Below, in pieces: positions 11,317 through 55,903 of a DNA stretch of 64,000 nucleotides. A program made the translations under genes and the position numbers. Under the pieces are notes generated by a model that saw only the letters and a program-made list of their open reading frames with translations, was not told the origin of the DNA and did no database searches. The first letter of the stretch is position 1. Each line of letters begins with the position of its first letter. The stretch is from a phage. The stretch lies in NCBI GenBank assembly GCA_026683435.1, contig GCA_026683435.1_4866.1. One strand, 5' to 3'.

Positions 11317-11328
11317 ACAATCTCCATA

Positions 11329-11352
11329 CCTCCACCCCCGAAGGGGTGGAGG
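11329..11352. other. 10-bp stem CGAA-loop hairpin (cctccacccc-cgaa-ggggtggagg)
   Basis: Perfect inverted repeat between two minus-strand genes; no clear T-run, so possibly a processing or stability hairpin rather than a terminator. Confidence 0.5.
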
Positions 11353-11360
11353 AAGGTTTG

Positions 11361-24069: not shown

Positions 24070-24873
24070 TTACCAGCTCCTTACACCCATGCCCATTACC
24101 CGCAGATTGGACACTTTCGGAGCCAGCTGCAGGTATTCCTGCGCGAGTTGCTGGAGAGCACCACGACGGGACTCAGTGGCAACAGCGCTGGTCGTTGTCG
24201 GATTGTACAGAATGTCTTCCAACACTTGACGACTGATAGGGCGGTCGACGTAAGTGCGAGTAGATTCCTGTGCCACTTTACTACCGCGTTGAATCGCAGA
24301 GTATTTGTTACAGATTTGCAGGCCATCTTCAATAACCCAGTCAAAGGTGACCAGTTTATCGATGCGGCGTACGATAGTCGTACCCAGACGACCTTCACGA
24401 ACGATAGCACGCAGTGAGAAACACACGTTCTGATGTGGGTTCTCTAGTGCTTCCGCCAGAAGCGGACCACGTTCACGGTTAGGTTTAATCCAACCCCAAA
24501 TTTCCATCACCGGCAGACCGTTACACATCTGGTCGGTCGGCTTCACTTCTACTTCGCGAATGTGCATACACACGTTACGCGTTTCGATCCATTCGTTACG
24601 TTCGATCCACTGGGCTTCGCTCATGCCTTGTTCGTATTGCGGATGGTCTTCTTCACCGAAGAGATTCCCCGCCAAAACTTTACGCATGAAAACGTTAGAG
24701 CGCTCGAAGACATGTTTTGACTCGTTATAGGCGTAGTAAATATTCTCAGAGTTGAAAATATTCAGTGCACCTAACAGGACGTAGTAATACCCGTCCGCAT
24801 CTTTCTTTAGCGTTGCCCCTTTATTGACCCCAGCGAGTGCCACGCAGTTATAACGTAGTGACAAGTTTTCCAT
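24070..24873 (-). CDS. hypothetical protein (267 aa)
   Basis: ORF. Confidence 0.55.
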   Translation of the reverse strand: MENLSLRYNCVALAGVNKGATLKKDADGYYYVLLGALNIFNSENIYYAYNESKHVFERSNVFMRKVLAGNLFGEEDHPQYEQGMSEAQWIERNEWIETRNVCMHIREVEVKPTDQMCNGLPVMEIWGWIKPNRERGPLLAEALENPHQNVCFSLRAIVREGRLGTTIVRRIDKLVTFDWVIEDGLQICNKYSAIQRGSKVAQESTRTYVDRPISRQVLEDILYNPTTTSAVATESRRGALQQLAQEYLQLAPKVSNLRVMGMGVRSW

Positions 24874-24935: not shown

Positions 24936-25664
24936 TTACCTCATATACAAATCCTCGAGTGGCTCTGCACGTACCGGATCGACCTGGAGTGCAGAACGGA
25001 TACCCTGTTTCAGTTCCACATCTGCAATCTTGGCCAACCGGGAAGTTTTGTTCAATGAACCTGAACGCAGCGGAATAAACTGCACCCGATTCATCAAATC
25101 GCTGTCTTTTTTCAGGGTGTAGCGGAAATACGTCCGCGGGTCGCCAACCTTACGCTGTGTGTGGGCAGCATAACAGTCAGCGGTGATCTGGTCGTTAAAG
25201 ACCGTAAAGCCGTTCCACGTCTTAGTGTCAGACAATAGCTCAGCGTCATCTACTGCGGTGTACCAGAAAGGCCGGTTTCCGAAGTCGTAGATGTACGAAG
25301 CGATGTTGTAGACTGGCGAGGAGAGCACTTGCAGCATTCGGTTGGGGAACACCACCGTGCCGGGGTCAAAACGGAACTCGTAATACGGCACACCCTGAAC
25401 GTCAATTTCCTCAAACGCCGACGGGGTAATTTCAATGAACGTCGTGACGTTCGATACCCCGTAGGTTTTGCGGTCAGTGGAGATAGCGAAAATGCCGACG
25501 ATTTCGACTTGCGAAGAAATTACCGCCAGCTCTTTAGCCACGAAGCCAACAGGGATGTAAATGTAACATCCCCCTTTGGTGATGGTGGCCGTGCCTTGGT
25601 CCACTAAATCTGCATGAATTTTCGTCGCGTCACGACGTGCTGTTTCAATGGCGCTCACGACCAC
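24936..25664 (-). CDS. hypothetical protein (242 aa)
   Basis: ORF. Confidence 0.55.
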   Translation of the reverse strand: MVVSAIETARRDATKIHADLVDQGTATITKGGCYIYIPVGFVAKELAVISSQVEIVGIFAISTDRKTYGVSNVTTFIEITPSAFEEIDVQGVPYYEFRFDPGTVVFPNRMLQVLSSPVYNIASYIYDFGNRPFWYTAVDDAELLSDTKTWNGFTVFNDQITADCYAAHTQRKVGDPRTYFRYTLKKDSDLMNRVQFIPLRSGSLNKTSRLAKIADVELKQGIRSALQVDPVRAEPLEDLYMR

Positions 25665-27149: not shown

Positions 27150-27439
27150 GCCTGACCCCCGTTTTTGGTGCTGATGGAATCCTGGATGCGGCCAGTAATA
27201 CGCGCACCCACCATATCAGCGATGTCTCGTTTCAGCAAACGCTGATCGCCCATGCGGTCAGACAGGCCATTGCTGCCCTTCAGCAGTCCGTGAATAATTT
27301 CGGTGGCCAATTCAACCGCATTGCCCAGAACAACAAAGTTCATGCGTTGCTGTGGGGAATAACCTTCCGTTTCCGGATTCGTGCTATTACGGCCCACCGG
27401 AATCCCATGCTGCTGCTTGAGCGTATCTAAAATTCCCAT
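27146..27439 (-). CDS. hypothetical protein (97 aa)
   Basis: ORF; stop overlaps downstream start (ATGA). Confidence 0.45.
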   Translation of the reverse strand: MGILDTLKQQHGIPVGRNSTNPETEGYSPQQRMNFVVLGNAVELATEIIHGLLKGSNGLSDRMGDQRLLKRDIADMVGARITGRIQDSISTKNGGQA

Positions 27440-27486: not shown

Positions 27487-30400
27487 TTAGTTGATTTTAG
27501 CCGGCAAGGCTGGGACGTCTTCACCATCTAAGATGCGTCCGATATTCTCCCCACCACGATACCCGACAGCGTTGGTGGTTCCGATGCGCATGATAGAACC
27601 TACGATACGTGCGTCGACGGAATCACGACCAAAGATAATGTCGAGTTCCTGCCCGTCTTCCGTTTTGTTGGTTCCATACATCACTTCCTGAACCGTCGTT
27701 TTCAGCTGGTTAGCAATAACCATCTTATCCGCTGCTGCCATCTCTACCCGGTGTGTGATGTAGAATCGGACACACAGGCTATTGTACGCTAACGGCACCC
27801 CCTCAACACGAAAATCACCGTTGACTCGACCGTCCTTCGGCACGTCACGTTTGAGAGCCAGCGCAGTCTTCCGACGTATACGGTCGTATTTACGAACCAT
27901 CTCCGCCAAAGACGGGGTCATATCTTCCACCTCGCCGTGGTAAACCACTTCGATTTTGTCGATAAACCCACGAACACCAGAGCGTGGTGCAAAGGAGCTT
28001 AACTCACGCAGCGTTTCCGCTGCTTCTTTACTGAACCCGCTCATATCGCCGGTCAGGTTGTCGGTGAAGGTGCATAGAATTGAATCCACGTCTACGTGGT
28101 CCCCTTCTTTTACCATCTCCAACAGGTTCTGGGTAAACGTCATTGTGACTTCTTTGAGTTTGGTAACATCGGCTTCAGCCTTAGCAGCGAACCGCTCACT
28201 AATGGCGTTGGAGTCCTCAATTACTTCTTCCCCTTCAATCAAAGCGACAGTTGCCAGTATCCCGTTTTTAAAACTGACCTGCGTTGGATCGTAGATGTCT
28301 GGTTCAAAGTGTTGTTCGTTGTACGTGATAACGGCACCGGCGGGGAGTTTATCTCCGCGCTTCCATTTCGTTACCAGGGTGTGTGGGTAGTAAGTCCCTT
28401 CGTGCGGACCGAACCAACGGCCCAGTGGGAAAGCTTCTTCCTCTCCGTCGTCGTATTTGATTTTAACGTGGTCGTTAAGAACCTCCACAATCTTGCCTGG
28501 TTTATCGATTACGCGTGCGTGCTTCACAGAAGTACGGTGTGCCACGAACTTTTCTTGCTCGGTACGATACGGTGTGGTGGTTGCGCCAACACAACTGGTC
28601 GCAGAACCGAATTGAATCCCAACGAAGTTCTGACGCTTAGCATCGTCCATCAGGGTATCCGGCACCAAGCCATCAATAAATGACAGTGCCTCACCTGGCT
28701 TCAGTTTATCGAGGTCCTTTTTAAAGGTCGTGCCGTCCACGGTGTCGTAACGCGGATTGTTTGTTGCAAAGGCGGTGATACCTACGTCGCCGTTATCGAC
28801 CGTGTTACCGGAGATAATCCCCAGGTCGCTCGGTTGGAATTCACGGGTACTGTATACCATGGTTTTGCGGTTACGACCGCCTGTACCGCCCATGGTAACA
28901 ACATCTTTTTCTTTGATGTTCTGTACCGGGTTTGCGCCAGGTGCCAGCAGAACAGACGGGTCGGAGTTAATTGCACCCCACACCATGTCCTGCGTCAACT
29001 CAAACTTACGATTCGAGTTAGGCGCGTTGTTGTAGTTACGCATCGCCCGCACCATCGCGGTGTAGATGTGATACGAAATACGTTGGTTCCCGATGAACAT
29101 CATTTCGTCACCGTTAATTTCCGGTAACGTGTGGTCCGTCTGCAGCAGTTCGTTAGAACGCTCCAGTAAGCCGATAAAGGTTTCCGGCTCGCCCATTTTC
29201 CTGAGGATACGCGCGTGCATGTCATCAACAAATGCGGTCCGCATCAGTTTCAGCTCTTTGATGTAGCGTGGTGTTAGCCCATCTGCATCGCGTAACAGGT
29301 TCAGATAAATGTCTTCCCGGTCAACTTCCGACTCGGTATACGTGGTAAAGTGTTTGATGTAACGGTCTAAGCCGTTGACAATCATCCTCTGTTGATCGTT
29401 CTCGCAGACAATTGCAATTTTCGCATCCTGGAGACGAATAATGGAGTCGAACTGACCTTTATCGATACGTTGTCCGACAGAGAGAACCTCGTAACTGATA
29501 CCAAAGTGTTTCAACATCCCGGTTAACCCGAGATAGTACGAAAACACAAAGCCCAGCGAGATTGATTTGCCCATCAGTGACAGTTCGGTCATTTCTCGTG
29601 GAGCCTTAGAGGTGTCCACGCCAAAGACTTCGGCGAGCGTACCCAGTGGTTCGGTCTTATCCTTATCCACTCGATAGAGCTGGGAGTTTTTATCCATACC
29701 GACGATGACATGACTCCGCGGTTTCTTCGCCACAGGTACCAGCTCGACACGGTCCGCGTCTGCCAGTTGCCCTTCGTTAAAGAATGCCGCTTTCTGTTTA
29801 ATGTCAAAGTTCCATTGGTACCCAATTGCGTTGAACGCTGCTACACGACGTGCCACCTCGGTGTACTGACGCGGCAGTTTAGACAGCGGATCGAACACAT
29901 TCGCCAGTTTTGCATCAGTGATTTCGGTGTTCTTTGGATCGACTGCACGAGTAATAATCGCGTTAGTGAGCCAACGTCCGTAATCATTGACGACTTTATC
30001 ACTGCGACGGACAAAGTTCTTCCCGTAGGCAGTGGTTAACGCTACAGTATCGTGGGACACTTTACGGATAGGAACATCAACGCGCTGACGACGCATTGTA
30101 TATTCCACACCATTCGCAACCCAAGTACCGTCTTCGGTTAATGCAGGAATTGAGAAACGTACCGTGGTTGGTTCTCCGCCAATCGGCTGAATACGCAACG
30201 TGTGGTGTTCGATATTCCCGGTAACGGAAATCTCTTTCTCAACAGTGTGATTGTGAATCGCCAAACCGAGACGCTGAGATGACGCCACTGCACCCAGAAC
30301 ATCTTTCGGGAAGATTTCCTGGTTGTACTGACGAATGATTTGGTCGGTAGTATTTTCCGCCCAGGCTTCATCCGTAACTAAGCGTTCAATCTTCTTAGGC

Positions 30401-31692
30401 TCGGCTTTAACTTCGAGTTTCTTCGGATCGATGGTCAGGCCTTCGCCGTACGTCTCTTTAGGATTGTACGGGTTGGGTAAGTTTACGAAACGTTTAGAAG
30501 ATTCGTTCAGGAACTGATACGCTTTGGCGGTGACGCGGCCCGCTTCTGCCAGGCGCTCAACTTCCTGTTTAATCACAGCATCGTGTGGGATGGTGCGTTC
30601 TACGACGATGGTGGTTGGTTTGACATCTTCTTTCGGCGCTTCGATGACCAGATCTTCTTTCTCATCGAACTCATGATCGTTCAATATATCGTCAACGTTG
30701 TCGCTTTGTGTTGCTTCATCGTCGACGATATCGAGGGTTTCTTCCGGTTTACTGGCAACGGCTTCAACAACATCGTCGTCCTCTCCCAGATGTACGCGTT
30801 CGTCCCCTTCCGGTGTAACGAACTCGTCATCTTCGTAGTCGGTAGACGGCGGTGTGGTCATCACAGTAGTCAGTGTACGGTAGAACATTCTGCCCATCTG
30901 TACGTCAGTCAAACGACCACCGGCAGACTTACGCATTCTTTCAATTACACCCATGTTCATGGATGTAAAACCACCGTTGTGCGTGAAGATAAAGTTCACA
31001 CGTGACAGCTGGTTCATGTCCATACCGTCAAACAGTGTTGCTTGCTGATCGCCGTACACCCAACCGAACAACTCCAGTAACCACAGGAGATTAAAGTCCT
31101 TAAAGCGCTCCAGTTTGGTTTTAACACGATCGTTATACGTCATTTTAAAACGATCGAAAGAAGGCAGTACGTTACCCAGTTCGATGATGTAGTAGTTCTG
31201 ACGCATGTACTCACGTGAGTCAGTTTTCATCTGGTTAGTTATCAGCAGCTGAATGTTGTGCAGACGTTCGTACCAGGACATCAGAGTATCAGGGTAGAAA
31301 TAATGCGGCAGCATCGGGGTGTAGTTTTCGATGAGCAGCACTTTCGGATCTGAACGCACCACGCCGTCTTCAATCATGCGACGAATACGACGATTGTTAC
31401 GATGGTACTGGAAGATTTGACGTTCTTGACCAACAACCGGTTTCTTACGCGGGTGGCCAATAATGCCGTCTTCAGGCAGCTGGAAGTGGTGACGAATCAT
31501 CGCCGGTTTTTCCAGCTGACCAAAACATGGTGTGGTTAACGGTGGTGCTAAAACCACCTGGTCTAAATCGATGGTGTGGTAGATAGAACCACGTGGGAGC
31601 TGGAGCTTCTCCAGCGGGATAATACGCGGACGACCGAACTCATCGGTCTTGCGCACGGTAAAGCGCTGGTTAAACTGTTTCAGAAAAATCAT
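27487..31692 (-). CDS. multisubunit RNA polymerase beta-like subunit (1401 aa)
   Basis: C-terminal half carries beta-like segments (IEDSNAISERF vs E. coli NFEDSILVSERV; AADKMV...EDGQELDIIFGRDSVDARIVGSIMRIG vs GDKMAGRHGNKGV...[26 protein letters not shown]); immediately downstream of the beta-prime-like gene. Confidence 0.6.
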   Translation of the reverse strand: MIFLKQFNQRFTVRKTDEFGRPRIIPLEKLQLPRGSIYHTIDLDQVVLAPPLTTPCFGQLEKPAMIRHHFQLPEDGIIGHPRKKPVVGQERQIFQYHRNNRRIRRMIEDGVVRSDPKVLLIENYTPMLPHYFYPDTLMSWYERLHNIQLLITNQMKTDSREYMRQNYYIIELGNVLPSFDRFKMTYNDRVKTKLERFKDFNLLWLLELFGWVYGDQQATLFDGMDMNQLSRVNFIFTHNGGFTSMNMGVIERMRKSAGGRLTDVQMGRMFYRTLTTVMTTPPSTDYEDDEFVTPEGDERVHLGEDDDVVEAVASKPEETLDIVDDEATQSDNVDDILNDHEFDEKEDLVIEAPKEDVKPTTIVVERTIPHDAVIKQEVERLAEAGRVTAKAYQFLNESSKRFVNLPNPYNPKETYGEGLTIDPKKLEVKAEPKKIERLVTDEAWAENTTDQIIRQYNQEIFPKDVLGAVASSQRLGLAIHNHTVEKEISVTGNIEHHTLRIQPIGGEPTTVRFSIPALTEDGTWVANGVEYTMRRQRVDVPIRKVSHDTVALTTAYGKNFVRRSDKVVNDYGRWLTNAIITRAVDPKNTEITDAKLANVFDPLSKLPRQYTEVARRVAAFNAIGYQWNFDIKQKAAFFNEGQLADADRVELVPVAKKPRSHVIVGMDKNSQLYRVDKDKTEPLGTLAEVFGVDTSKAPREMTELSLMGKSISLGFVFSYYLGLTGMLKHFGISYEVLSVGQRIDKGQFDSIIRLQDAKIAIVCENDQQRMIVNGLDRYIKHFTTYTESEVDREDIYLNLLRDADGLTPRYIKELKLMRTAFVDDMHARILRKMGEPETFIGLLERSNELLQTDHTLPEINGDEMMFIGNQRISYHIYTAMVRAMRNYNNAPNSNRKFELTQDMVWGAINSDPSVLLAPGANPVQNIKEKDVVTMGGTGGRNRKTMVYSTREFQPSDLGIISGNTVDNGDVGITAFATNNPRYDTVDGTTFKKDLDKLKPGEALSFIDGLVPDTLMDDAKRQNFVGIQFGSATSCVGATTTPYRTEQEKFVAHRTSVKHARVIDKPGKIVEVLNDHVKIKYDDGEEEAFPLGRWFGPHEGTYYPHTLVTKWKRGDKLPAGAVITYNEQHFEPDIYDPTQVSFKNGILATVALIEGEEVIEDSNAISERFAAKAEADVTKLKEVTMTFTQNLLEMVKEGDHVDVDSILCTFTDNLTGDMSGFSKEAAETLRELSSFAPRSGVRGFIDKIEVVYHGEVEDMTPSLAEMVRKYDRIRRKTALALKRDVPKDGRVNGDFRVEGVPLAYNSLCVRFYITHRVEMAAADKMVIANQLKTTVQEVMYGTNKTEDGQELDIIFGRDSVDARIVGSIMRIGTTNAVGYRGGENIGRILDGEDVPALPAKIN

Positions 31693-31710
31693 ACATGTGC
31701 CTTATGGGTA

Positions 31711-33324
31711 TCATTTCAACAGCGCAGCAGTCGTTCTTTTAATCACGTTGTTAACCGGATTGATTTTGAAACTGCCGTCTGTTGCAAACCAGTAGTTTTT
31801 CGAACTGACCCACTTCCGATTTTCCTCGAGCGCTTCGGTTGACATCGGGCAGTTTGCTGAGCCGGTGTCACCATCGTAGTCACCACCCAATCCACCTAAT
31901 CGGGATGGATGCGGTGCCATGGATTCCACAAAGGTTTTCACGGTACGGTCAGGGAAGCTAATTGCTCCCTTCTCTTTTAACGTGACCCAATCGTCTTCCA
32001 GTTCATGCAAATAGAGGGAAGAGGTGGTGGTCTCCAATCTTATGGTCGAGGAGTAAGTCGAACCGCGTCCCGTAACCGGATAACGCGTGATGAACGAGAA
32101 GTAGTCATTCCAAATATCGTAACCTGACAAATAGAGGAGTTCCGCTAAGCTCAGTCCGCGGACAAGCTTACGGTCACGTCCTTCCGGCAGGTCTTCAATA
32201 TCGTAAAAGATTTTGAAGCTGCGTTTGTCCTGGTAGATTAATGCCACGTAATGGTCCGGATCAATCATCAGCGGTTTATGTCGAAGCTCGCGCGCTTCCA
32301 TTCTGTTGATGAGTGTTTCGATGCCATCGTCGGTAGTGAAAAGGTCATACACCCGCCCGGAGACTTCCAGGAACTCACGCTTGAGTGTTTTGGTGTTAAC
32401 GCCGTATAAGTTGCCGTCCCCTGCCCGGATGTTACTGAGGTAACGTTCACGGATGTGGTATTGAGCCACAGGCAGTAATGCCTTCAGGGTTTGGTACAAA
32501 CCGATACGGGTATCCGTTGGACGAATCGCATCTTCGCGACCCATGACCTTGGAACCGGTTGAGAATGAAGACAGTACGTTACGCGTACCGTTCATTAACT
32601 TACGTGACGTCACTTTACGACGTGCAAAACCACCTTTACCATCCTGGATGTTGAAGAAGTACATCCAGATGTCATTAAAGGTTTGTTGGAGCTTCCAGCG
32701 AACCGGGTCAGTCAGTTCCGTTCGCGTACTGCGGTCGGGGATTGCACGCGCCAGAGAAATCAGACGACGGTAGAGTCCGCCAATCTCTTCTTCTTGGTCG
32801 CGGCCATCCTGACGAATGACCAAATCACGTAATCCCGCAGGCAGAACCAGCACATAGCGGCTGAGACTGACCGGACGGAACTTATTGAAGAAATCGACTG
32901 TCTCGTCGCGACGCATCGACTCGTTGCGACCCGGAGTCAGTTGTTCGTAGTAGCGTAGGAAGAAGTTGAAGCCGGTGTCTGCACCTTTATCACTGGGCAG
33001 AGCCGGCTCGAAATCTTTTTCTTTCTCATTCCAGATAGCGAATCGCTTCCCGGAACAGATTTCTTCGTACAGCTGTTTCAGCTGGAACAATGCCAAACAA
33101 ACGGTCGGCGAAATGATATCCAGTTTGATATCAATGTACGAGAACGTTGAGTCTCGTGCTTCGCTCCCTGTGAGGCCAAAAATTTCGGTTGAATACAGTC
33201 CTTCAGGGTGAAAGTTTTTCGTCAGTCCCTGAAAGGTGTCTGTTGTTGTAACTGGTTTTAAATGCGACACCAGGGACTTATTAACGTTCAGTAGATAAAA
33301 ATCTACCCAGTTAAGCTTTCTCAC
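31711..33324 (-). CDS. multisubunit RNA polymerase beta-prime subunit, N-terminal portion including the catalytic loop
   Basis: GLYSTEIFG (cf. GLFCARIFGP), YVLVLPAGLRDLV (cf. LPVLPPDLRPLV), GGLYRRLISLARAI (cf. NDLYRRVINRNNRL) and GGDYDGDTG (cf. NADFDGD); GTG start with AGGAG RBS. Confidence 0.75.
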   Translation of the reverse strand: MRKLNWVDFYLLNVNKSLVSHLKPVTTTDTFQGLTKNFHPEGLYSTEIFGLTGSEARDSTFSYIDIKLDIISPTVCLALFQLKQLYEEICSGKRFAIWNEKEKDFEPALPSDKGADTGFNFFLRYYEQLTPGRNESMRRDETVDFFNKFRPVSLSRYVLVLPAGLRDLVIRQDGRDQEEEIGGLYRRLISLARAIPDRSTRTELTDPVRWKLQQTFNDIWMYFFNIQDGKGGFARRKVTSRKLMNGTRNVLSSFSTGSKVMGREDAIRPTDTRIGLYQTLKALLPVAQYHIRERYLSNIRAGDGNLYGVNTKTLKREFLEVSGRVYDLFTTDDGIETLINRMEARELRHKPLMIDPDHYVALIYQDKRSFKIFYDIEDLPEGRDRKLVRGLSLAELLYLSGYDIWNDYFSFITRYPVTGRGSTYSSTIRLETTTSSLYLHELEDDWVTLKEKGAISFPDRTVKTFVESMAPHPSRLGGLGGDYDGDTGSANCPMSTEALEENRKWVSSKNYWFATDGSFKINPVNNVIKRTTAALLK

Positions 33325-33354
33325 TTTTTAGGCTCCTGAATTGGAAGAAACATT

Positions 33355-36300
33355 ATGGCAAAAAGAGGCAAAGACGGTTTCGATGATATCGATTTAGATA
33401 GACTCGACGACTGGGATGATTTCGGTGAACCACCCCGTCCCAAAGACGAGAAAAAACGAAGCCCGATACTCAGTACCCTGAATGTTGCCAGGAAGTCGGC
33501 GTTGTCAACTATCTGGCCAGAAGGGAAACGCGACCAAGTTATCCTCAAGGGGATGCCTAAGCCGGCAGCTGATGCATACGAGGGCTATCAGTCAGCGGCA
33601 GCTGCAGCAAAGGACATTTACGCCCATACGAAAGGGGAGCTTGAGAAGACCGAGCGCACGCTGAAGATGCAAGCGCGCCAACTCGGTCCGACAATGAAGA
33701 AATACTTGCCGGATGCAGTTACTAAGCGCATCGACAAGTGGTCAAAATCTGACCAGTTAGATTACCAGAACTACGATCCGAATCAGGCATTGATGGATCG
33801 TGAACTGGGCGACGTATTCTCAGGTGTGCCAAAGGACGCCGACGAACAACGTCAGCTGCAGGACCGCATGGTAGAGGATAAGCTCCGCGACAGCATCAAA
33901 GAGATGCGCGCGGATGCAATGCACCAAACCATGATTGGGATGGCGAAAGACATTAACCTGCTAACCGGGTTAAGCCGTGGGGTATTCTTAAACATCGAGC
34001 GTAAGAAACTCGAATTGCAATACCGTACCCTGTTCGCCATTCAAGACATCGTGAAGATGAAGCAGTCGGAGTTCGATCGTAACACGCCTGCTTTAGAAGC
34101 CATCGTGAAGAACACGGCGCTGCCAGACTACGCGAAGGAAGATTTCTCAGAAGTCCGTTGGGCAAACGTTAAACGCCAGGCTGCGGAATGGATGAACCCA
34201 TTGCGTTATGCTGACGGGTTTATGGACATGATTCGCGAAAATACCAAGAAGAAAATTTCTGGTATATTCGGCGAAGGTCGTGGTTTGTTAGAGTCTGTTC
34301 TCGGCATGGGTGTTGAAGACGATTTCGGCATGAGCGACAGCTCTTCGTTGACTGCCGAACGTCGCAAAACAAATGCTCGCGATAAAGCAACTGCATGGGG
34401 TAGCGGATTCCTTGCGAAGAAACTACTCGGCCCACAAATCGAGAAACTCCAGAAATGGACTCGTGAGGAGATGGAGAAAAATCCAGAGGTCATGAAACGC
34501 CTGCAGAAGGGCGCGTTCACCTTTGGTAATCTTTCCTCTATCTCGAACTCAGCTATCGCAGGCGAAACGCAAGGACCTTTGGCGGATTTGTTCCGGGTAC
34601 TGAATGAACTCGGTATTGTCCAACCGTTAAACCGTGAGAAAGCCTTCCTTGATGAGCGTAATGGCGAAACGTTAAGTCGCTCGGCGAAGTTTGACCGTAA
34701 AGCGTATCTTAGCCTGGTTGAAGTTATTCCTGCCTGGCTGGCAGAGATTAACAAATCTGTTCGTCGTGGCTATGGCGAACATGCCGATCTGGAATACGAC
34801 ATCACCAGTCGTGGTTTCGTGGACCGCAAAGTGGTCGGTAACCGTGTACGCAAAGCGGTTGCAAACGATGAGCAGCGCCTGCGTCTCCAAAATTCCATTA
34901 ACAGCACTGTGGATTTTGTTGACCGTGGCAAAACGCTCTCGCAGAAGGATCGGCAGCATCTTGCCGACTATATCGAGTCACGTGCCTCGCAGGGCCGCGC
35001 ATTCGACGTAGAAGCGATTCTGAAAGACCCGATGCATCTTCATCGGTATATGCCAGGAAACGCCGCAGAACGCATTAAGGAAGCGTTACAGGGGCATTCT
35101 GATAGCTTGGTCGGTGGTAGCAACGAATTAAGTAACGAGCTGGCCCGCAAAATCTCCACAGTGCAGTCATCTATCACCCAACGTCAGGCAATTATCGACG
35201 AGGCGGTGAATATTTACGGTGAGCGAGCATTGCGTGATGCGGGTATCTTTAACTACGACGCGAAGAGTGACACTTTCGGCGTGGATAAAGACCTGTCCGA
35301 TCCCTATACCTTGTTTAATGACTTGGCGATGGGTAAGACACGCAGCGGGCGTGCATTGACTCGTGACCAGGAGATTCAACGTAAGCTGCAAAACGGTTCG
35401 GCGTTAGGCGACTATCTGCGCCGAATGAACCAAGGGGCAAGTGGTGGTGCCGATGACACGTCGTTGCCGCCGGCTTTACGTGGCGGTGGTAAAGGCCGCG
35501 GAATGTCGCCTCGGCAGTTAGCCGCAGTTCTCTACGGTGAAACCTCGACTAACTTTGTTGAATTGTTGAGTCAACGTAACCGCGGCGAAGAAGCACCACG
35601 GAATAACTTTGACGGCATCATCGAAGCGATTCGGGGTAATAACAACAGCGACACCCTCCAGAAAATTCTGGAACACGTTAGAAGTATGGACGAAGAAGGG
35701 GTTCTCCTGGCTTCGTTAGCAGGGGGTGCTGGTTCTGGTGACGAAGAGATGGGACCACCTCGTCCTGGTGGTGGTAGCGGTGGCGGTAAACGCCGCCGTA
35801 TTATCATCGGTGAGGATGGGCTTATTCGTCGTTGGGGCGGTGTGTTGTTCGACACTGCAGCAGGAATCGGTGGCTTTGCAAAACGTGGTGTTAAAGGTGC
35901 CTGGAATAAACTGAATCAGTTCGGTGGCTGGGCGCGCGGTAAAATCGCGGGGATGGGCGGCGGAGAAGGTCCTGGTTTCTTAACCCGGATGCGTGGCCTT
36001 ATCAGCGGTAGTGTCCGTGGGGGCTTTGAAGCGGTAAGCTCTTTCGGTAAAGGATTGCTGGGTATCCGCGACGTTTACGATGACCATGGTAATGTTGTAC
36101 TGCAAGGTGCACGTCTGGAAGCTGGAGAATACTATCAGGTCATTGATGGTAAAATGGTTCAGCTGAAAACGCTGGACGACATCAAACTGGGGAGTGATAT
36201 TGTTGACTCCGCAGGTAATCTGGTATTAGCAGCCGCTGACTTAGCCGCTGCGGGTAAACTCCGCTACTATAAAGGCGGGAAAATCCAAGCACTGACCCAA

Positions 36301-39300
36301 GGTCTGGCCAGTAAGATTGGCTTAGGCTTTAATAAGGTGGCTAAGCTACCGAAACGGTTCCTGGATTTCCTGTCACCGAAAGCAGGCAGCATCGTTGGTA
36401 AGATTAAGGACTGGCTGAACGAGATTCCGGAGGGTGAAGAAAAGACACGTCTCCAGAAAGCGTTCAACCGCGTAACGAGCTTACCGGGTAAAGTGCTCGG
36501 TTTTGCGAAACGTGGTGTCGACCGTCTGAAAGACATGATTACCGACAACCCACTGACGCGTTGGTGGAAAGGCCGTAAAGATGGTGGGGGTGGTGGTTTC
36601 AGTATCTTCTCATCAACCGGAAAGAAAACCAACCACATTCTTATCCGTATCTACAAACTGTTGAACCAACGTTTACCGGGTGATCCGGAAGACGAAAGTT
36701 GGACAGAAGAAATGGAGAAGGGTGTCGGTGGCGGTGGTAGTACGATCGGCCGTGCAGTTCGCGGGGCGTATAATCGTGCGAAATCGTCGTTGTCTGAACG
36801 TTTTGGTGGACGTTGGTCAAGAACAAAAGCGTTCTTTGGTCGTGGACGTGACCGCCTGCGTGGTTGGTTCAGTGGTTTCCGAGGCCGGGCTGGGGATATG
36901 CTCGATGGGTATCGTGGAGCACGACACGACATTGCTACACGTTACGAAGTTGAACGTCGGTTGGCTGGACGTGATGACGACGTTGCTGAGTTTTATCGCA
37001 GTCATTTGAACGCGAAAGGTGGCCTTTCTGGCCGTAAAGTCTACGGTGACGCGAAGGACGACCTTGAGACCGCGCGCGATGCAGCAGGTCGGGTTATCAA
37101 CAAAGGGAAGAACGCTGCCAAATCTGCAGGTGCAAGGTTATTCGAACGCTTGGACCGAATGATTGGCTTGCAAGAGATGTCATGGTTTAACACCATGCGC
37201 GAATCAGTATCCCGTGCAGGTGGTGACGATGGCATTATTCGTACCATGTTTGCGAAGTTCGGTAAACGTAACAAGCCACCTGAAAGTGATGAAAAACGCG
37301 ACTACCTTAACTTCTTCAAACGTTGGCGTGAGAAACGTAAGGAGAAGAAAGAGAAAGCGCAGGGCTCCAAAGGGAAATCTGGCGGTCTGTGGGATATGGT
37401 GAAAGGCTTACCTATCATCGGTCCCATCGTCAGTATCTTGGGAACTGTGGGTAATATACTCGGTTCTATCACGAAATGGGGTGTGTTAAAACCAGTAGGT
37501 CTTTTAGGTAAGGCTGCGTGGAATGTCGGTAAGTTCGCAGTAACCCGTTTGGCGGCACCCGCGGTGTCCGCTGTGGCAACTGCGGCATCTGCCGTCGTGA
37601 CAGCAGTGGGCTGGCCGGCAATTCTTATCGGTGGTGCGATCGCTGCGGCTGGTTACGCCGCGTACAGGATTGCAACGACTACCTATACCCAGTACCTGGA
37701 TAAGATGCGTTTAGCTCAGTACGGTTTCCGTGATTACGATAAGTGGTCGTCGGACGACGGGGCGAAAGCGCGTTACTTAGAAGACGCATTGCGTGAGTAT
37801 GTGTCTTACGCGGAAGATGGCCAAGCCAGTCTCCGCGGGCTAAGTGGAAAAGACGTTCAGAAGTTAGCTGAAGGGTTCGGTATTAACGTCGAGGAAAAAG
37901 GCGAGATGTTGGCCTTCCAAGCGTTTATGCTTCAGCGCTTTATTCCGATTTATCTCCGCTGGATTACGGCACTGAAGTCAATGCCGAACAGTATCCAGTT
38001 GGCTGACGTCGGCGATGCGAAGAAAGTATCGAAAGAGGACATGCTGACTCTCTTCAACAAAATGAAGATGACTAAGGATGCAAAAGCGTTCTCTTCGTTA
38101 ACTGACCCACGCAAAGTCAACCAAGGTTTCTTCTCGAAGGCTTGGGACGTCGTAACCTTTACACCGAAGGAGTTTTTGAGCGGTGAAGAGGTTATGGAAG
38201 TGCAGAATGAAGTCGAGCGTGCAATCAAGTCCAGAATGGACGATAAGAAAGCACGTAAGTACGGAATGGCACCGGCCGTGGAGGGGATTAAATCCGCTGG
38301 CGTTGATGAAGCTATCAACAAACTAGGACAGCTGGATAACGAACGTAACAAAAATCTGGCGAAGGTAGAAGGTTGGGAAGACGGAACAGAGCAGGTTCAG
38401 ATTCAGGTAGACTGGAATGCGGTGCTCGACCAGAAAGACATGAATGCGATGGAATCGGTGCGTTGGAAGACTTACGGCTTTACCACCATCGATAACGCCA
38501 CCCGCACTTTGATCACGGTATTCGAGAAGAACGTCATCAAAGACATTGACGTGAAAACCGCAAGCTACAAAGGAGATTGGAAGAAAGCAATCGCCTCGAT
38601 GGTTCCAGACGCTATCGGCACACCGAAAGAAGATCGTTTGAAACGGTGGTTCTTTGACCGTTTCTTACCGGTATTCATGACGTATTTGGTTGGGGTGAAG
38701 CGTTACCTGCCAACAGCCGATCCGCTGAACTTGAAACTGACCGGCGGCTACCTGTACGAAATCAGTCTGATGATGTCAACTGCCTACAGCTTGAAAGGTG
38801 GTATAAGACAGTCGGTGTGGGAAGTGAATATCAACCCATTAGGGGGTGAGGCTAACACGAACCCATCGTCTATCAAAGCCGAGCTGGAAACGCTGAAGCT
38901 GTTGTCAAAAGAAGCTGACCTTGCCGTGCGTAACATGATTAAAGCCATTAAAAATAATGGCAAGCGTGCACGCTGGAAGGATCGTAACAAGAACCGCAGT
39001 TCTCTGGAAGTTACCGATGAAGATGAAGAAGACTCGAACATCAGTTCGGGAGATTCTTTGTCATCTGACGGTGCTCGCGCCTCAGGCTACATTCCATCGG
39101 GTACGAGTGGTGGTGTGCCGGGTAACTTGGGTCAAGTCGTCGATGCGGTTGGTGGTGTGCGGAACTACGCTGCAATGACCACTGGTTCGTCTTCGATTAA
39201 CCTGAGTGATGTGAAAGACGGTGATTATAAGTCACTGGCTGAAAAATACCCGATAGAAATGTTGGGTAGAAAGGGTGCGTTGAACGTTCCGAATATCAAA

Positions 39301-40476
39301 GCATTGATTACCGATGCGGCGAACATGATGGGCGTGCCACCTGCAGTAGCGTTAGCAATGGCTAAAGCGGAATCCGGTTTTAACTACACCGCTAAAAACC
39401 CGTATGCTTCGGCGTCTGGGCTGTTCCAGTTCATTGACGGCACGTGGAACGGGATGATGAAGGGGTATTCGCGGAAGTTCGGTATTCCGCGTGTTAACCA
39501 AATGGACCCGTGGGCGAATGCTATATTGGGTGTACAGTTCATTCGTGACAACATCCAACAAGCACAGCGTGACCTGGGTGGTAAAGCACCACCTCCAGCC
39601 GTGGCTTATCTGTACCACTTCTTGGGTGCAGGCGGCGGTAAGAAGTTCTTGGAAGCATGGAAGCGTAATCCGAATATGGCGGCATCAAGTGCTCCTGGGA
39701 TTACATCTGCAATACTGAGAGGGAATGCCAACGTCTTCTACAGCAACGGTCGTATACGTAGCGTAGACGGGGTTATTCAGGAACTGAACCGCCGCATGGG
39801 CGCAATTTCCGCCAACGAAGTCGCTGCCGATCCGAGTAAGACGAAGGATATGGTTGCAGGCTTGTCGCCTAATTCACCAACCAACCCGGCAGCAGCAATG
39901 GGTGCACCGGCCGCTAATGATCCGAGTCTGTCGCCAGCAGATAACCTGCCGGCAGATAATGCTAATCGTCGTGATGACGCATTGACGCAGAAAGGGGCCA
40001 TGGCGGCACAAGATGCAATGGCTACCGCCGCAGGTAATGTAGGACCAGCAGCACCTACACCAACCACAGGCGGTACCGGAACATCCGATGCCTCAACAAC
40101 GGCCGAAACCGTAGCGTCGCAAGCTGCAGCAGAAGGATTGTCTGCGACGGATGTTGCTAAAGTGAAAGCAGGCGCGGAAGCGCAGGTTAACGCAGCAGCT
40201 CGTCCAGTTGCCGCTCCAACTTCTGATGCTACAGCATCGACGCCAACGCTGAATGGTGACCCGATAGATGTTCAGCAGCTCAAGGTACTGATTCAGTCTC
40301 GCGATTACTTGAAAGAGATTCGTGATATTTTGAAATCAAATCCAAGAGCGGCAAACGACACACGGGGTGGTAGTATCCAGCAAGCGGCAAATGTGGCTCC
40401 TCCGGGCTCAGCTGCACGTAGGCAGGAAATAACCCAACCGACACCGTCGTTAAACGTAAGTCGGAAAGCAAGCTAA
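33355..40476 (+). CDS. giant virion protein (2373 aa) with C-terminal lytic transglycosylase (SLT) domain; putative tape-measure / cell-wall-penetrating protein
   Basis: SLT signature AKAESGFNYTAKNPYASASGLFQFIDGTWNGM near nt 39350-39700; hydrophobic segment (aa ~1350-1440); Gly-rich and basic repeats (AKRGVKGAW, FAKRGVDRLK); uninterrupted 7.1-kb ORF. Confidence 0.85.
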   Translation: MAKRGKDGFDDIDLDRLDDWDDFGEPPRPKDEKKRSPILSTLNVARKSALSTIWPEGKRDQVILKGMPKPAADAYEGYQSAAAAAKDIYAHTKGELEKTERTLKMQARQLGPTMKKYLPDAVTKRIDKWSKSDQLDYQNYDPNQALMDRELGDVFSGVPKDADEQRQLQDRMVEDKLRDSIKEMRADAMHQTMIGMAKDINLLTGLSRGVFLNIERKKLELQYRTLFAIQDIVKMKQSEFDRNTPALEAIVKNTALPDYAKEDFSEVRWANVKRQAAEWMNPLRYADGFMDMIRENTKKKISGIFGEGRGLLESVLGMGVEDDFGMSDSSSLTAERRKTNARDKATAWGSGFLAKKLLGPQIEKLQKWTREEMEKNPEVMKRLQKGAFTFGNLSSISNSAIAGETQGPLADLFRVLNELGIVQPLNREKAFLDERNGETLSRSAKFDRKAYLSLVEVIPAWLAEINKSVRRGYGEHADLEYDITSRGFVDRKVVGNRVRKAVANDEQRLRLQNSINSTVDFVDRGKTLSQKDRQHLADYIESRASQGRAFDVEAILKDPMHLHRYMPGNAAERIKEALQGHSDSLVGGSNELSNELARKISTVQSSITQRQAIIDEAVNIYGERALRDAGIFNYDAKSDTFGVDKDLSDPYTLFNDLAMGKTRSGRALTRDQEIQRKLQNGSALGDYLRRMNQGASGGADDTSLPPALRGGGKGRGMSPRQLAAVLYGETSTNFVELLSQRNRGEEAPRNNFDGIIEAIRGNNNSDTLQKILEHVRSMDEEGVLLASLAGGAGSGDEEMGPPRPGGGSGGGKRRRIIIGEDGLIRRWGGVLFDTAAGIGGFAKRGVKGAWNKLNQFGGWARGKIAGMGGGEGPGFLTRMRGLISGSVRGGFEAVSSFGKGLLGIRDVYDDHGNVVLQGARLEAGEYYQVIDGKMVQLKTLDDIKLGSDIVDSAGNLVLAAADLAAAGKLRYYKGGKIQALTQGLASKIGLGFNKVAKLPKRFLDFLSPKAGSIVGKIKDWLNEIPEGEEKTRLQKAFNRVTSLPGKVLGFAKRGVDRLKDMITDNPLTRWWKGRKDGGGGGFSIFSSTGKKTNHILIRIYKLLNQRLPGDPEDESWTEEMEKGVGGGGSTIGRAVRGAYNRAKSSLSERFGGRWSRTKAFFGRGRDRLRGWFSGFRGRAGDMLDGYRGARHDIATRYEVERRLAGRDDDVAEFYRSHLNAKGGLSGRKVYGDAKDDLETARDAAGRVINKGKNAAKSAGARLFERLDRMIGLQEMSWFNTMRESVSRAGGDDGIIRTMFAKFGKRNKPPESDEKRDYLNFFKRWREKRKEKKEKAQGSKGKSGGLWDMVKGLPIIGPIVSILGTVGNILGSITKWGVLKPVGLLGKAAWNVGKFAVTRLAAPAVSAVATAASAVVTAVGWPAILIGGAIAAAGYAAYRIATTTYTQYLDKMRLAQYGFRDYDKWSSDDGAKARYLEDALREYVSYAEDGQASLRGLSGKDVQKLAEGFGINVEEKGEMLAFQAFMLQRFIPIYLRWITALKSMPNSIQLADVGDAKKVSKEDMLTLFNKMKMTKDAKAFSSLTDPRKVNQGFFSKAWDVVTFTPKEFLSGEEVMEVQNEVERAIKSRMDDKKARKYGMAPAVEGIKSAGVDEAINKLGQLDNERNKNLAKVEGWEDGTEQVQIQVDWNAVLDQKDMNAMESVRWKTYGFTTIDNATRTLITVFEKNVIKDIDVKTASYKGDWKKAIASMVPDAIGTPKEDRLKRWFFDRFLPVFMTYLVGVKRYLPTADPLNLKLTGGYLYEISLMMSTAYSLKGGIRQSVWEVNINPLGGEANTNPSSIKAELETLKLLSKEADLAVRNMIKAIKNNGKRARWKDRNKNRSSLEVTDEDEEDSNISSGDSLSSDGARASGYIPSGTSGGVPGNLGQVVDAVGGVRNYAAMTTGSSSINLSDVKDGDYKSLAEKYPIEMLGRKGALNVPNIKALITDAANMMGVPPAVALAMAKAESGFNYTAKNPYASASGLFQFIDGTWNGMMKGYSRKFGIPRVNQMDPWANAILGVQFIRDNIQQAQRDLGGKAPPPAVAYLYHFLGAGGGKKFLEAWKRNPNMAASSAPGITSAILRGNANVFYSNGRIRSVDGVIQELNRRMGAISANEVAADPSKTKDMVAGLSPNSPTNPAAAMGAPAANDPSLSPADNLPADNANRRDDALTQKGAMAAQDAMATAAGNVGPAAPTPTTGGTGTSDASTTAETVASQAAAEGLSATDVAKVKAGAEAQVNAAARPVAAPTSDATASTPTLNGDPIDVQQLKVLIQSRDYLKEIRDILKSNPRAANDTRGGSIQQAANVAPPGSAARRQEITQPTPSLNVSRKAS

Positions 40477-47031: not shown

Positions 47032-48069
47032 TTAGATAGCGACAGGCGCAGATATTTTTTCATGAGACTGATACCCAACGATCTCAAAATCTTCGAACTT
47101 ATAATCGAAGATAGAATCCGGTTTACGCTTGATGACCAGTTTCGGTAAAGGTAAAGGTTCGCGCGTCAGCTGCAATTTAGCCTGTTCCAGATGGTTGGAG
47201 TACAGATGTACGTCACCACCACTCCAAACGAAATCGCCTGGAACCATGTTAACTTGCTGAGCTACCATGTGTACGAGTAATGCGTAAGACGCGATGTTGA
47301 ACGGTGTTCCCAGGAAGAAGTCTTGGGAACGTGCATACAGCTGACATGAAAGAATGCGGCGAGGTATTTCAAGTGCGTCCATCTCAACGTGGAACACTGC
47401 GTCGTCTGCAACAGCTTCATTACTAAAGCGGGAATCGTTAAATTGATCTGGAAGGTTCTTTTCAAACCAATCAAGACGCTCGTCGATAGACAGCTCACGA
47501 GTGTAGAACTGAAAGAACGCATGACACGGAGCTAACGCCATTTGATCCAACTCACCCACATTCCATGCGCTGACAATAATACGGCGACTGTCAGGATCGT
47601 TACGCAGTTGGTCAATCACCTTAGAGATTTGGTCGTGTAGTTTCAGAAGTACACGCGCATCGAACATTTGTGAACCGTCGTCCGCGTCGCCATAATCCAC
47701 GTATCCTGCATCTTGCAGTTTCTCGAGTAAAGCTGCATTTTTCTTAGGCACCAGTTTCACATCTTTCCAACGTCTCCACTGTTCCCCATACAGGGGGCCA
47801 AGGTTCCCATTTTCATCTTGCCACTCCCGCCAAATGGTAACGCCGTTATCTTCCAGATATTTGGTGTTGGTATCGCCACTAAGGAACCACAGCAGTTCGT
47901 GAATAATAGAACGCAGGTGGAGTTTTTTAGTCGTGACTAGCGGGAAACCTTTGCGCAAATCAAAACGCATTTGGCGACCAAAGACGGAGAGCGTCCCTGT
48001 TCCAGTACGGTCGCCTTTAACATGCCCTTCATCCAGAATATTCTGCATCGTTTCAAGGTATTGCTTCAT
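47032..48069 (-). CDS. thyA: thymidylate synthase
   Basis: Near-identical blocks to E. coli ThyA (MKQYLE...[51 protein letters not shown], ends ISAPVAI); two insertions relative to E. coli. Confidence 0.92.
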
Positions 48070-54562: not shown

Positions 54563-55238
54563 ACAGCGCAGTGTCCTTTACGTCAGTACCGACGTATTGT
54601 GCAAGAAAACGGGTGGACTCCTTAAAGGGGTTCACCTTATCTCTTTTTATTTGCGCGATTGCTTCTTCCGTTAATTCGCTGGTCAGCATACTCGGTCGGG
54701 TAATCGTAAAATCCGGAATCGGTTTCTGGAAATGGTTCGCGTGTTGTTCTATCCACGGATACCAATCGTACATTATCCAACCATCCCATGCAGATGCAAG
54801 TCGTCCTGGTGTAAGATCGCTGTGAGGAATAACAACGACGTCTACTTGCACTTCGTTATAGTAGTAACGCAGTTCTTCCAAAAACGCATGACGTTCTTCA
54901 TCATCGAGATCAGCGTATGGCCACAGGTTAAACGTTAAGACAGGTCGCTCGATAGGAGCGTGCATCTGTATCGTCATTAACATTGCCTGTACTTCGTTCT
55001 TTAGCGTAAGCAACATTTCTGTTGGCTGCGCGTTCTGCAACGCGCGTTTATCACGCTCCGCGAACTTTTTATTCCAGTCCTGAATTCCTACCACTTCGGC
55101 CCACGCATCTGTGAACCGCATCCGATACACTTCTAAATCAAGCTTCTCTAATACATCAGGCTGCAGCACTTTCGCCCAACCAATTCGTGTATCGAAGATT
55201 GTGTCGATATCGACTAAGAAACGGCGTCCTAATCTCAT
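54510..55238 (-). CDS. hypothetical protein (242 aa)
   Basis: ORF. Confidence 0.5.
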   Translation of the reverse strand: MRLGRRFLVDIDTIFDTRIGWAKVLQPDVLEKLDLEVYRMRFTDAWAEVVGIQDWNKKFAERDKRALQNAQPTEMLLTLKNEVQAMLMTIQMHAPIERPVLTFNLWPYADLDDEERHAFLEELRYYYNEVQVDVVVIPHSDLTPGRLASAWDGWIMYDWYPWIEQHANHFQKPIPDFTITRPSMLTSELTEEAIAQIKRDKVNPFKESTRFLAQYVGTDVKDTALFSLRRHQQDDDSQTQTP

Positions 55239-55903
55239 TCCGGGCGTCCTAAGTTGTTACCGATGTGCATTGCTTTAAAGTACGAAGACCATGTACGCGG
55301 CGCTTTTGAACTAGTACGCTCAGCCCCTTCCAGGTTGATGCGACCTTTACCGGTTTGCCGTAGCGATTGATAGAACGCACGTTGTAACGTATCGTTACCA
55401 CCACGCGCCCACAGGAACTCCTGGAGCGTTGAGTCGTGTCCATCCGAGTACATGATGTACGCTTCTGGAAACGAAACACCCGAAGCTTTGGAAGGCCCTA
55501 CTACCTGACCTGAGAGTTTATCGCGGACTTTATCGTTCTTCGCCACCGCCATTTTCTTCTCATGCATCTGCGTCTGGCGACGTGCAGGCAGGCGGAAGAC
55601 TAAATGGGGGTAACGGGTACGTTGTAGGATACCGGTTTTCGGTTCCGTGAGCCACAGGCGCTGACACAAGCTCAGTCCCATCGCTTCGCAAATTTTAATA
55701 TTGCGCATATGGTCAATTTTGACCTTGCCACCAGTTGGGTTGTAAACAGGCAACCCTTCGCGCAGACGATTGAACTCTTCGTCAGACATTCGCGAGAAAG
55801 CGCGCTTGGCAGCTTCCGCGTTAATCCCGGTCGGGTCAACTAAGTTCAGTAACTGTAAAGCATAAGCTTCTGCTTTTTTTCGCCGTGCCGGGTCTAATCT
55901 CAT
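55235..55903 (-). CDS. hypothetical protein (222 aa)
   Basis: ORF, ATGA-coupled. Confidence 0.5.
   Translation of the reverse strand: MRLDPARRKKAEAYALQLLNLVDPTGINAEAAKRAFSRMSDEEFNRLREGLPVYNPTGGKVKIDHMRNIKICEAMGLSLCQRLWLTEPKTGILQRTRYPHLVFRLPARRQTQMHEKKMAVAKNDKVRDKLSGQVVGPSKASGVSFPEAYIMYSDGHDSTLQEFLWARGGNDTLQRAFYQSLRQTGKGRINLEGAERTSSKAPRTWSSYFKAMHIGNNLGRPE

Follow-up and report, generated by a model that had tools for sequence, protein, structure and literature searches.

Two adjacent genes in a 64,000-nucleotide stretch of phage DNA (the window) encode proteins bearing motifs of the β′ and β subunits of multisubunit RNA polymerase (RNAP). The question that this locus raises is which polymerase the two proteins belong to, and how much of that enzyme the window encodes. 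Both genes lie on the minus strand. The first (31711..33324) encodes 537 amino acids and starts with a GTG at 33324, with an AGGAG 8 nt upstream; the second (27487..31692) starts with ATG and encodes 1401 amino acids, and the spacer between them is 18 nt (31693-31710). EIFG (residues 46-49), LPAGLRDLV, GGLYRRLISLARAI and GDYDGD (D482/D484/D486) were all found in the translation of the first, and EDSNAISER (E1159/D1160), AADKMVIANQLK and DIIFGRDSVDARIVGSIMRIG in that of the second. An earlier note on this DNA had described two co-oriented reading frames with an 18-nt gap and had quoted these motifs, and the ORF list and the translations agree with it on these points. It had also proposed profile and structure searches of both proteins against RpoB and RpoC, and these yielded similarity to RNAP β′ and β.

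The 537-aa protein matches PHROG 2986 from end to end (E 3e-238). It is 99.8% identical to gp240 of SPN3US and 33% identical to gp180 of phiKZ (E 4.5e-76), and 325 phage records carry a homolog. The Pfam-A scan gave nothing at threshold, and a single-sequence PDB search reached β′ only marginally (E 0.39). The family profile matched β′ of the AR9 non-virion RNAP (nvRNAP; 7s00/7s01 chain d; E 2e-13), and it also matched β′ from bacteria or plastids (E 1e-7 to 1e-10). Foldseek searches with an AF2 model of the protein (pLDDT 78.5) returned AR9 β′, cyanobacterial γ, plastid RpoC1 and bacterial β′ (E 1e-14 to 1e-10, prob 1.00). The TM-score of 0.3 is modest, as the subunit was modelled in isolation.

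The catalytic metal-binding loop DYDGD (D482, D484, D486) is encoded at 31867..31881 on the minus strand. In the HMMER alignments it lines up with NADFDGD of plastid β′ and SGDYDGD of AR9 β′. D482 is invariant, and D484, G485 and D486 are at least 90% conserved, among 30 homologs down to 37% identity. In the AF2 model the region around the loop (residues 469-486) has pLDDT <50, so that its superposition in three dimensions could not be judged. The chain stops 51 residues past D486, and γ/RpoC1 chains of 611-620 residues are among its best fold matches. These results support the assignment of the 537-aa protein as an N-terminal β′ fragment (N-β′) ending shortly after the catalytic Asp loop, as the earlier note had read it. 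The fragment comprises the clamp core and the double-psi β-barrel with its Mg-binding DYDGD loop, and its end is the split site used also by cyanobacterial and plastid β′. In the cyanobacterial and plastid enzymes (γ/RpoC1 + RpoC2), β′ is broken at the same place, after the catalytic barrel; these enzymes differ in being cellular, with an unsplit β, with α, ω and σ, and with no packaging in virions. Reviews describe the core of virion-packaged RNAPs (vRNAPs) as five polypeptides, with a β′ split that coincides with the cyanobacterial one (PMC7598289, PMC13282480).

The 1401-aa protein matches PHROG 3148 over residues 1-1391 (E 0), and by blastp its residues 4-1390 align with phiKZ gp178 (29% identity over 1447 columns, E 0). 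Its ORF sits where SPN3US_0241 does, and the DNA of this region is 97.9% identical between the two phages. Neither a Pfam-A scan (nothing at threshold) nor a single-sequence PDB search (no β match) recognised it. The family profile matched Thermus β (E 4.7e-11) in colinear blocks at Thermus residues 117-139, 396-464, 532-654 and 822-880, and hhalign placed residues 917-1363 on E. coli β 515-1107 (prob 92.6%). With an AF2 model of residues 361-1401 (pLDDT 85, pTM 0.82), all of the top 50 Foldseek hits in the PDB were bacterial β chains (best E 4.7e-25); the TM-score, again of a subunit modelled in isolation, is modest at 0.47. E1159, D1160, K1323, Q1329 and K1331 are invariant among 26 homologs down to 22% identity. 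With such conservation in both families, the motifs of the two proteins are no chance occurrence. The 1401-aa protein is thus β-like, as had been proposed from its motifs. Because the Pfam-A scans were blank and the single-sequence PDB searches marginal or negative, the assignments of both proteins rest on profiles, folds and orthology.

Whether the 1401-aa protein is a complete β was considered separately. The earlier note had read the β gene as apparently a single unit of 1401 aa, alongside an N-terminal β′ fragment and with the remaining β′ wholly elsewhere. The length is near that of a full bacterial β (1342 aa in E. coli), and motifs that look C-terminal in β are present. The length is, however, owed to a region of about 400 aa ahead of the first β-like block, which has no Pfam match. 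The β-like part stops at about residue 1107 of 1342 in E. coli β and residue 880 of 1119 in Thermus β. Further, a separate gene of the C-β family and the published C-β′ gene both lie in the window. An unsplit β is thus not borne out, and this reading retains almost no probability. The results support a β-like protein cut before the β C-terminal region, that is, N-β.

The β-like body of N-β, the homolog of SPN3US gp241 and phiKZ gp178, covers about residues 400-1401 (27487..30492, minus strand). The extension covers about residues 1-400 (30493..31692, minus strand) and includes an acidic linker near residues 285-360. No Pfam family was found at threshold for the N-terminal 360 aa, and in HMMER the first β-like block starts at about residue 515, aligned to Thermus β 117. 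The extension is conserved among the homologs (F7, P33, H39 and Y124 are invariant) and is present in phiKZ gp178, where the blastp alignment begins at residue 4. N-β consists, in order, of a phage-specific extension of about 400 residues, the β lobes and fork loop, and then the second barrel (EDS...) with a DK...K nucleotide-binding block after it; it ends near E. coli β residue 1107. A head-targeting role of the extension has been put forward as a hypothesis (PMC5105663), and the region can be regarded as a proposed head-targeting region.

The piece that would complete β is encoded 23.5 kb away from the N-β gene. A 222-aa gene at 55235..55903 (minus strand) maps to SPN3US_0218, and its product is a homolog of SPN3US gp218 that matches PHROG 3233, 'RNA polymerase beta subunit' (E 5e-93). 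gp218 was described as vRNAP β-C and is missing from virions of the 241(am11) mutant (PMC5105663), and the assignment of the 222-aa protein as C-β is that published there. By hhalign the protein falls on E. coli β 1160-1309, just past the end of the 1401-aa match, in a weak alignment (E 0.0045, prob 7.7%). Its profile gave no match in the PDB or to SPN3US gp34, annotated as an RNAP β subunit; a single-sequence PDB search also gave nothing, and none of the 22 members of the C-β alignment matched an RNAP family in Pfam.

A fourth gene, of 242 aa (24936..25664, minus strand), lies 1.8 kb downstream of the 1401-aa gene. Its product is homologous to gp244 of SPN3US and to gp176 of phiKZ (30% identity to the latter, E 5e-32), matches PHROG 2926, a virion structural protein (E 1e-94), and belongs to a large family, of which 458 representatives remain after clustering at 50% identity. 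The gp244 family has been assigned to the C-terminal-most region of β′ (PMC5105663, PMC7598289); the published link consists of an HHpred match at E 0.05 and of its joint loss with the other subunits from gp241-mutant virions (PMC5105663). A profile of 70 sequences of this family matched neither E. coli β′ nor gp35 of SPN3US, which carries a β′ annotation, nor any PDB chain, and for the 242-aa protein itself Pfam returned no family at threshold. Our own profile and alignment tests of the 222-aa and 242-aa proteins thus gave no independent confirmation of an RNAP origin. It is conceivable, though on balance doubtful, that the 242-aa fifth subunit is an unrelated vRNAP-specific factor, e.g. an assembly or promoter-specificity subunit, and not a remnant of the β′ C-terminus; an analogue would be gp68, the non-homologous fifth subunit of the phiKZ nvRNAP. 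In that case the packaged polymerase would work without the C-terminal-most region of β′.

The middle β′ piece, gp42 in SPN3US, was searched for in the window by tblastn and nothing was found below E 4; its gene lies at 39.4-40.7 kb in SPN3US, beyond the region that the window covers. The statement in the earlier note that the C-terminal half of β′ is not in the window therefore holds for the middle piece and fails for the published C-β′, the gp244 homolog at 24936-25664. By the published assignments, four of the five vRNAP genes are present in the window, namely those for N-β′, N-β, C-β and the fifth subunit, and β is split as well as β′.

The origin of the DNA was established by comparison with SPN3US. 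The 5.8-kb region of the two genes is 97.9-99.1% identical in DNA to phages of the SPN3US group. Host-derived genes, or a prophage of another type, were considered as the source and rejected, since the window is collinear with SPN3US throughout at ~97% identity. The window is that of an SPN3US-like Salmonella jumbo phage. SPN3US gp240 and gp241 have the same lengths (537 and 1401 aa), the same 18-nt spacing and the same neighbours, gp239 and gp242-245, and the two genes differ from theirs by strain-level substitutions only. Elsewhere there are small changes in gene content, such as an extra 307-aa ORF of the window at 58935-59858.

The surroundings of the two genes are those of a virion gene block. 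Divergently adjacent to the N-β′ gene, at 33355..40476 on the plus strand, is a gene for a giant virion protein of 2373 aa, the homolog of SPN3US gp239 and phiKZ gp181 (blastp against the latter, E 3e-29). It belongs to PHROG 3201 and carries a Pfam SLT lytic transglycosylase domain at residues 1984-2072 (E 6e-10), in line with the giant SLT neighbour described before; it is a divergent neighbour and stands outside the polymerase proper. At the other end the block is closed by the gene of a 267-aa prohead maturation protease (24070..24873, minus strand), the homolog of SPN3US gp245 and phiKZ gp175 (PHROG 3014, head maturation protease, E 6e-109); gp175 of phiKZ, 'head protease', is placed alike. 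The gene order is that of phiKZ, gp181 / gp180 / (gp179) / gp178 / 177.1 / 177 / 176 / 175, and this synteny supports the phiKZ-type virion RNAP arrangement suggested earlier. The phiKZ vRNAP consists of gp180 (N-β′) and gp178 (N-β) with gp149, gp80 and gp176, and shares with the present locus the orthologs, the block and the divergent SLT giant protein. In phiKZ, an insertion bearing gp179 breaks the gp180 frame within the DFDGD motif; here the gene is continuous and lies 18 nt from the N-β gene. A scan of 23.5-34 kb for sigma-70 promoters and intrinsic terminators gave sites no commoner than in shuffled sequence and was uninformative on how the genes are transcribed.

phiKZ-type phages also make an nvRNAP, and the two proteins could in principle be subunits of such an enzyme, made after infection and transcribing late genes. 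Both kinds of enzyme have split β and β′, and in the PDB the 537-aa protein is best matched by an nvRNAP, that of AR9. The AR9 enzyme (PDB 7S00/7S01) is likewise a split two-barrel polymerase without α and ω; among solved structures its N-β′ comes closest to the 537-aa protein, and the split site after the β′ barrel is common to both. AR9 may rank first simply for want of a matching vRNAP chain in the copy of the PDB searched. The AR9 nvRNAP differs in being paralogous (14% identity), in not being packaged and in acting late in infection, and it has four core polypeptides as against five in vRNAP, with β split elsewhere (PMC7598289). The reading is opposed by the detection of the orthologs SPN3US gp240 and gp241 in virions by mass spectrometry, together with gp218, gp42 and gp244 (Thomas et al. 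2016, PMC5105663). SPN3US has two further genes, gp34 and gp35, annotated as RNAP β and β′; they are placed ~30 kb into its genome and have no match in the window. Two family HMMs run against the six-frame translation of the window detected no paralog of either family, and hence no second RNAP gene set of these families. Finally, the two genes lie within the virion block that also encodes the giant SLT protein, head proteins and the prohead protease; it is syntenic with phiKZ gp175-181, which are annotated as structural head proteins. Subunits of an nvRNAP are thus a highly improbable explanation.

The evidence points to packaging: the products of the two genes are very probably two of the five chains of the multisubunit RNAP that this SPN3US-like Salmonella jumbo phage packs into its virions. 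The enzyme would be completed by C-β (55235-55903), the 242-aa fifth subunit (24936-25664) and the middle β′ piece encoded outside the window. In SPN3US, virions of the 241(am11) mutant lose all five vRNAP proteins, and gene 241 is essential (PMC5105663). Each phiKZ virion carries ~10 copies of gp180. The protein is injected, and gp178, gp80 and gp149 co-precipitate with it (PMC10612078); its packaging and injection were demonstrated by Western blot and fluorescence (PMC10612078).

The two proteins might instead be RNAP-derived and catalytically dead, retained as structural, internal head or ejection proteins. As of a review of 2020, a vRNAP had yet to be purified or assayed (PMC7598289), and the 1401-aa protein, with its Pfam-less extension of ~400 aa, is needed to load other head proteins (PMC5105663). 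Against a dead enzyme, all the catalytic elements tested are conserved in distant homologs (the DxDGD triad; β E1159/D1160 and K1323/K1331). In phiKZ-type phages rifampicin does not inhibit early transcription, which needs no host RNAP, and gp180 co-localises with the incoming DNA after injection (PMC10612078, PMC13282480). Loss of catalysis therefore appears very unlikely. Since no vRNAP had been purified as of that review, we infer the enzymatic activity of the complex; host-RNAP-independent early transcription (PMC13282480, PMC7598289) suggests that the vRNAP synthesizes RNA.

From the work on SPN3US and phiKZ, the course of events for the packaged polymerase would be as follows. The subunits would be made in mid-infection and assembled before being loaded into the prohead, and the loading would depend on N-β. 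About 10 copies of the vRNAP would be ejected with the DNA and would then transcribe the early genes without host RNAP, α, ω or σ.

The two genes are an ordinary case, already published in 2016 as SPN3US gp240/gp241. The window adds nothing to the biology of the vRNAP, and the practical gain is a corrected annotation. Packaged multisubunit RNAPs free the giant phages of the phiKZ type from the host polymerase for early transcription. They are unusual enzymes, made of five chains, with no α, ω or σ, which must traverse the tail.

The 537-aa N-beta-prime ORF (31711-33324, minus strand, GTG start) and the 1401-aa N-beta ORF (27487-31692, minus strand, ATG start) are co-oriented in the ORF list and separated by 18 nt. 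Their translations contain every motif that the earlier note had quoted for this pair at 27487-33324: EIFG, LPAGLRDLV, GGLYRRLISLARAI and GDYDGD in the 537-aa protein, and EDSNAISER, AADKMVIANQLK and DIIFGRDSVDARIVGSIMRIG in the 1401-aa protein. An AGGAG sequence is located upstream of the GTG start at 33324 with a spacing of 8 nt, and no terminator-like site was found between the two genes when the region was scanned.

The 537-aa protein had no match in Pfam. A single-sequence PDB search was marginal, with LPxxLR, LYRR and the DxDGD loop in the correct order against plastid beta-prime. A family profile of 30 homologs matched N-beta-prime of the AR9 non-virion RNAP at E 2e-13 and, at E 1e-7 to 1e-10, beta-prime chains of bacteria, cyanobacteria and plastids by the dozen, the catalytic loop being aligned with NADFDGD. 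The AlphaFold2 model (mean pLDDT 78.5, the catalytic loop itself being of low confidence) was compared with PDB by Foldseek, and only beta-prime-type chains were retrieved; the best match was AR9 chain d (1.4e-14), and next came cyanobacterial gamma, plastid RpoC1 and bacterial beta-prime. Within the 30-homolog family D482 is invariant and D484, G485 and D486 are nearly so. That these are RNAP-derived but catalytically dead proteins is unlikely, being at odds with the conserved catalytic residues. The chain ends 51 residues past the catalytic loop, at a split site common to virion-packaged RNA polymerases (vRNAP), the second, non-virion polymerases (nvRNAP) and cyanobacterial beta-prime (review, PMC7598289). 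Profile and structure searches were thus positive and, together with conservation, bear out the earlier proposal that the product is an N-terminal beta-prime fragment ending after the catalytic loop.

The family profile of the 1401-aa protein (26 homologs) matched Thermus beta (E 4.7e-11) in four colinear blocks, phage residues ~515-537 corresponding to Tth 117-139 and the remaining blocks to Tth 396-464, 532-654 and 822-880 of 1119. By hhalign, residues 917-1363 aligned with E. coli beta 515-1107 (probability 92.6%). For the model of residues 361-1401 (pLDDT 85, pTM 0.82), all 50 of the top 50 Foldseek matches were bacterial beta chains (best E 4.7e-25). E1159 and D1160 of the EDS block and K1323 and K1331 of the DK...K block are invariant in the family. 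The N-terminal ~400 residues, with an acidic linker among them, lie ahead of the beta-like blocks and had no match in Pfam. Because these matches and conserved residues are accompanied by a match end at ~E. coli residue 1107, the protein is beta-like, as had been claimed, and is not a whole beta, lacking everything past that residue. The earlier view of the gene as a single-unit beta had to be given up, since a gene of the C-beta family is present elsewhere in the window; an unsplit beta is improbable in view of the alignment boundaries.

This C-beta gene (222 aa, 55235-55903, minus strand) is the counterpart of SPN3US gp218 and belongs to PHROG 3233, 'RNA polymerase beta subunit' (E 5e-93). 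With weak statistics (hhalign E 0.0045, probability 7.7%), its product aligned with E. coli beta 1160-1309, exactly the part absent from the 1401-aa protein, and the weak alignment includes SGVSFPEAY..STLQEFL; its family profile found no chain in PDB. The fifth subunit (242 aa, 24936-25664, minus strand) is a homolog of gp244/phiKZ gp176, a large family with 458 representatives. A 70-sequence profile of this family showed no similarity to E. coli beta-prime, SPN3US gp35 (annotated beta-prime) or PDB chains, and the subunit is a candidate beta-prime derivative, for which the published sequence link is an HHpred match with E 0.05. The statement that the C-terminal half of beta-prime is absent therefore holds in part: SPN3US gp42, the middle beta-prime piece, had no match within the window, but the published candidate C-beta-prime gene is the gp244 homolog. 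Matches to SPN3US gp34 and gp35 (annotated further RNAP beta and beta-prime) were likewise not found within the window, nor, with the two family HMMs, were paralogs of the 537-aa and 1401-aa families.

The block shares synteny with phiKZ, where the order is gp181 (SLT giant protein), gp180, gp179, gp178, 177.1, 177, gp176 and gp175 protease, and this synteny upholds the proposed phiKZ-type virion RNAP arrangement, including the divergent giant SLT virion protein (2373 aa, 33355-40476, plus strand; SLT domain, Pfam E 6e-10). That the genes encode nvRNAP subunits is unlikely, as it conflicts with both orthology and gene context. In phiKZ (AF399011, reverse complement), the annotated gp180 ORF (8968-10440) breaks off exactly at the opening Asp of the catalytic motif, DFDGD ('...APLGAD'; compare window 31867-31881), and its continuation 'FDGDTVSFNAVYSEEAIAE...' (11881-11985) is found ~1.4 kb downstream, past the 357-aa gp179 ORF (10493-11566); the loop is therefore interrupted by an inserted element. 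Unlike phiKZ gp180, the N-beta-prime gene of the window is uninterrupted. Between the N-beta and fifth-subunit genes are two conserved genes of unknown function, of 491 aa (25674-27149, minus strand, PHROG 3841) and 97 aa (27146-27439, minus strand, PHROG 8223). They occupy the positions of phiKZ gp177 (a 519-aa structural head protein) and gp177.1, to which their products show no similarity (blastp, E<=1e-3).

The divergent starts of the N-beta-prime and SLT-protein genes are just 30 nt apart (33325-33354), each with a Shine-Dalgarno-like sequence of its own. A sigma-70 promoter scan found no site in this intergenic region. Such a gap is too short to hold two conventional promoters, and the layout would be compatible with a phage polymerase using minimal promoters.

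By megablast, 42 phage records cover at least 80% of the polymerase region, with 97.9-99.1% identity to the SPN3US group of Salmonella/Escherichia jumbo phages (Seoulvirus). The SPN3US genes under the match, SPN3US_0240 and SPN3US_0241, are annotated 'putative DNA-directed RNA polymerase beta subunit 4/5'. Between gp240 and the 537-aa protein the identity is 99.8%, and the stretch of the window between 7.5 and 64 kb runs collinear with SPN3US at ~97% identity. The case is already known, since the genes are SPN3US gp240 and gp241. The 537-aa protein has homologs in 325 phage records, with hosts in Pseudomonas, Erwinia, Vibrio, Serratia, Aeromonas, Klebsiella, Ralstonia, Staphylococcus and Bacillus. 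A 100% identical entry, 'hypothetical protein DEI58_00075 [Salmonella enterica serovar Enteritidis]', is on a 241,679-bp contig, and a complete jumbo-phage genome was therefore deposited inside a bacterial assembly, by way of a carrier state, pseudolysogeny or contamination. Where the window has a 307-aa ORF of unknown function (58935-59858, minus strand, PHROG 6160), SPN3US has ~10 nt, and thus differs in gene content as type phage. Two tandem paralogs (59927-60469 and 60480-61049, minus strand, PHROG 9806) adjoin this ORF, and around 58935-61049 the alignment with SPN3US is either broken or diverged (92% identity). Another break in the alignment, over ~800 nt in the SPN3US gp228 region, coincides with a 308-aa ORF (48069-48995, minus strand, PHROG 10269; weak match to a MazG-like nucleotide pyrophosphohydrolase family, E 8e-6) immediately upstream of a thymidylate synthase homolog.

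The SPN3US vRNAP has been listed as gp240 (beta-prime N), gp42 (beta-prime M), gp241 (beta N) and gp218 (beta C), with gp244 as candidate beta-prime C (Thomas et al. 2016, PMC5105663). All five polypeptides were found in virions by mass spectrometry; gene 241 is essential, and with an amber mutation in it all five are gone from the particle (PMC5105663). Goslar virions also contain all five subunits. In phiKZ, each virion has ~10 copies of gp180, which enters the cell by injection, co-localises there with the incoming DNA and brings down gp178, gp80 and gp149 on co-precipitation (PMC10612078). Reviews of 2020 (PMC7598289) and 2026 (PMC13282480) treat the five-polypeptide core as established, and up to 2020 purification of a vRNAP had not been achieved (same reviews).

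Between them, the 537-aa and 1401-aa proteins carry both halves of a two-barrel RNAP active centre in which all catalytic residues tested are conserved, and the genes assigned to the missing beta C-terminus and to the fifth subunit are close by in this window. The observation and core interpretation of the earlier note are correct; two details are wrong, in that beta is also split and that two vRNAP genes besides N-beta-prime and N-beta are present in the window. As the SPN3US and phiKZ literature suggests, the vRNAP subunits would assemble in the cytoplasm, depend on gp241 for their loading into the prohead and be ejected together with the DNA; the ejected enzyme would then transcribe early genes without host RNAP, alpha, omega or sigma.
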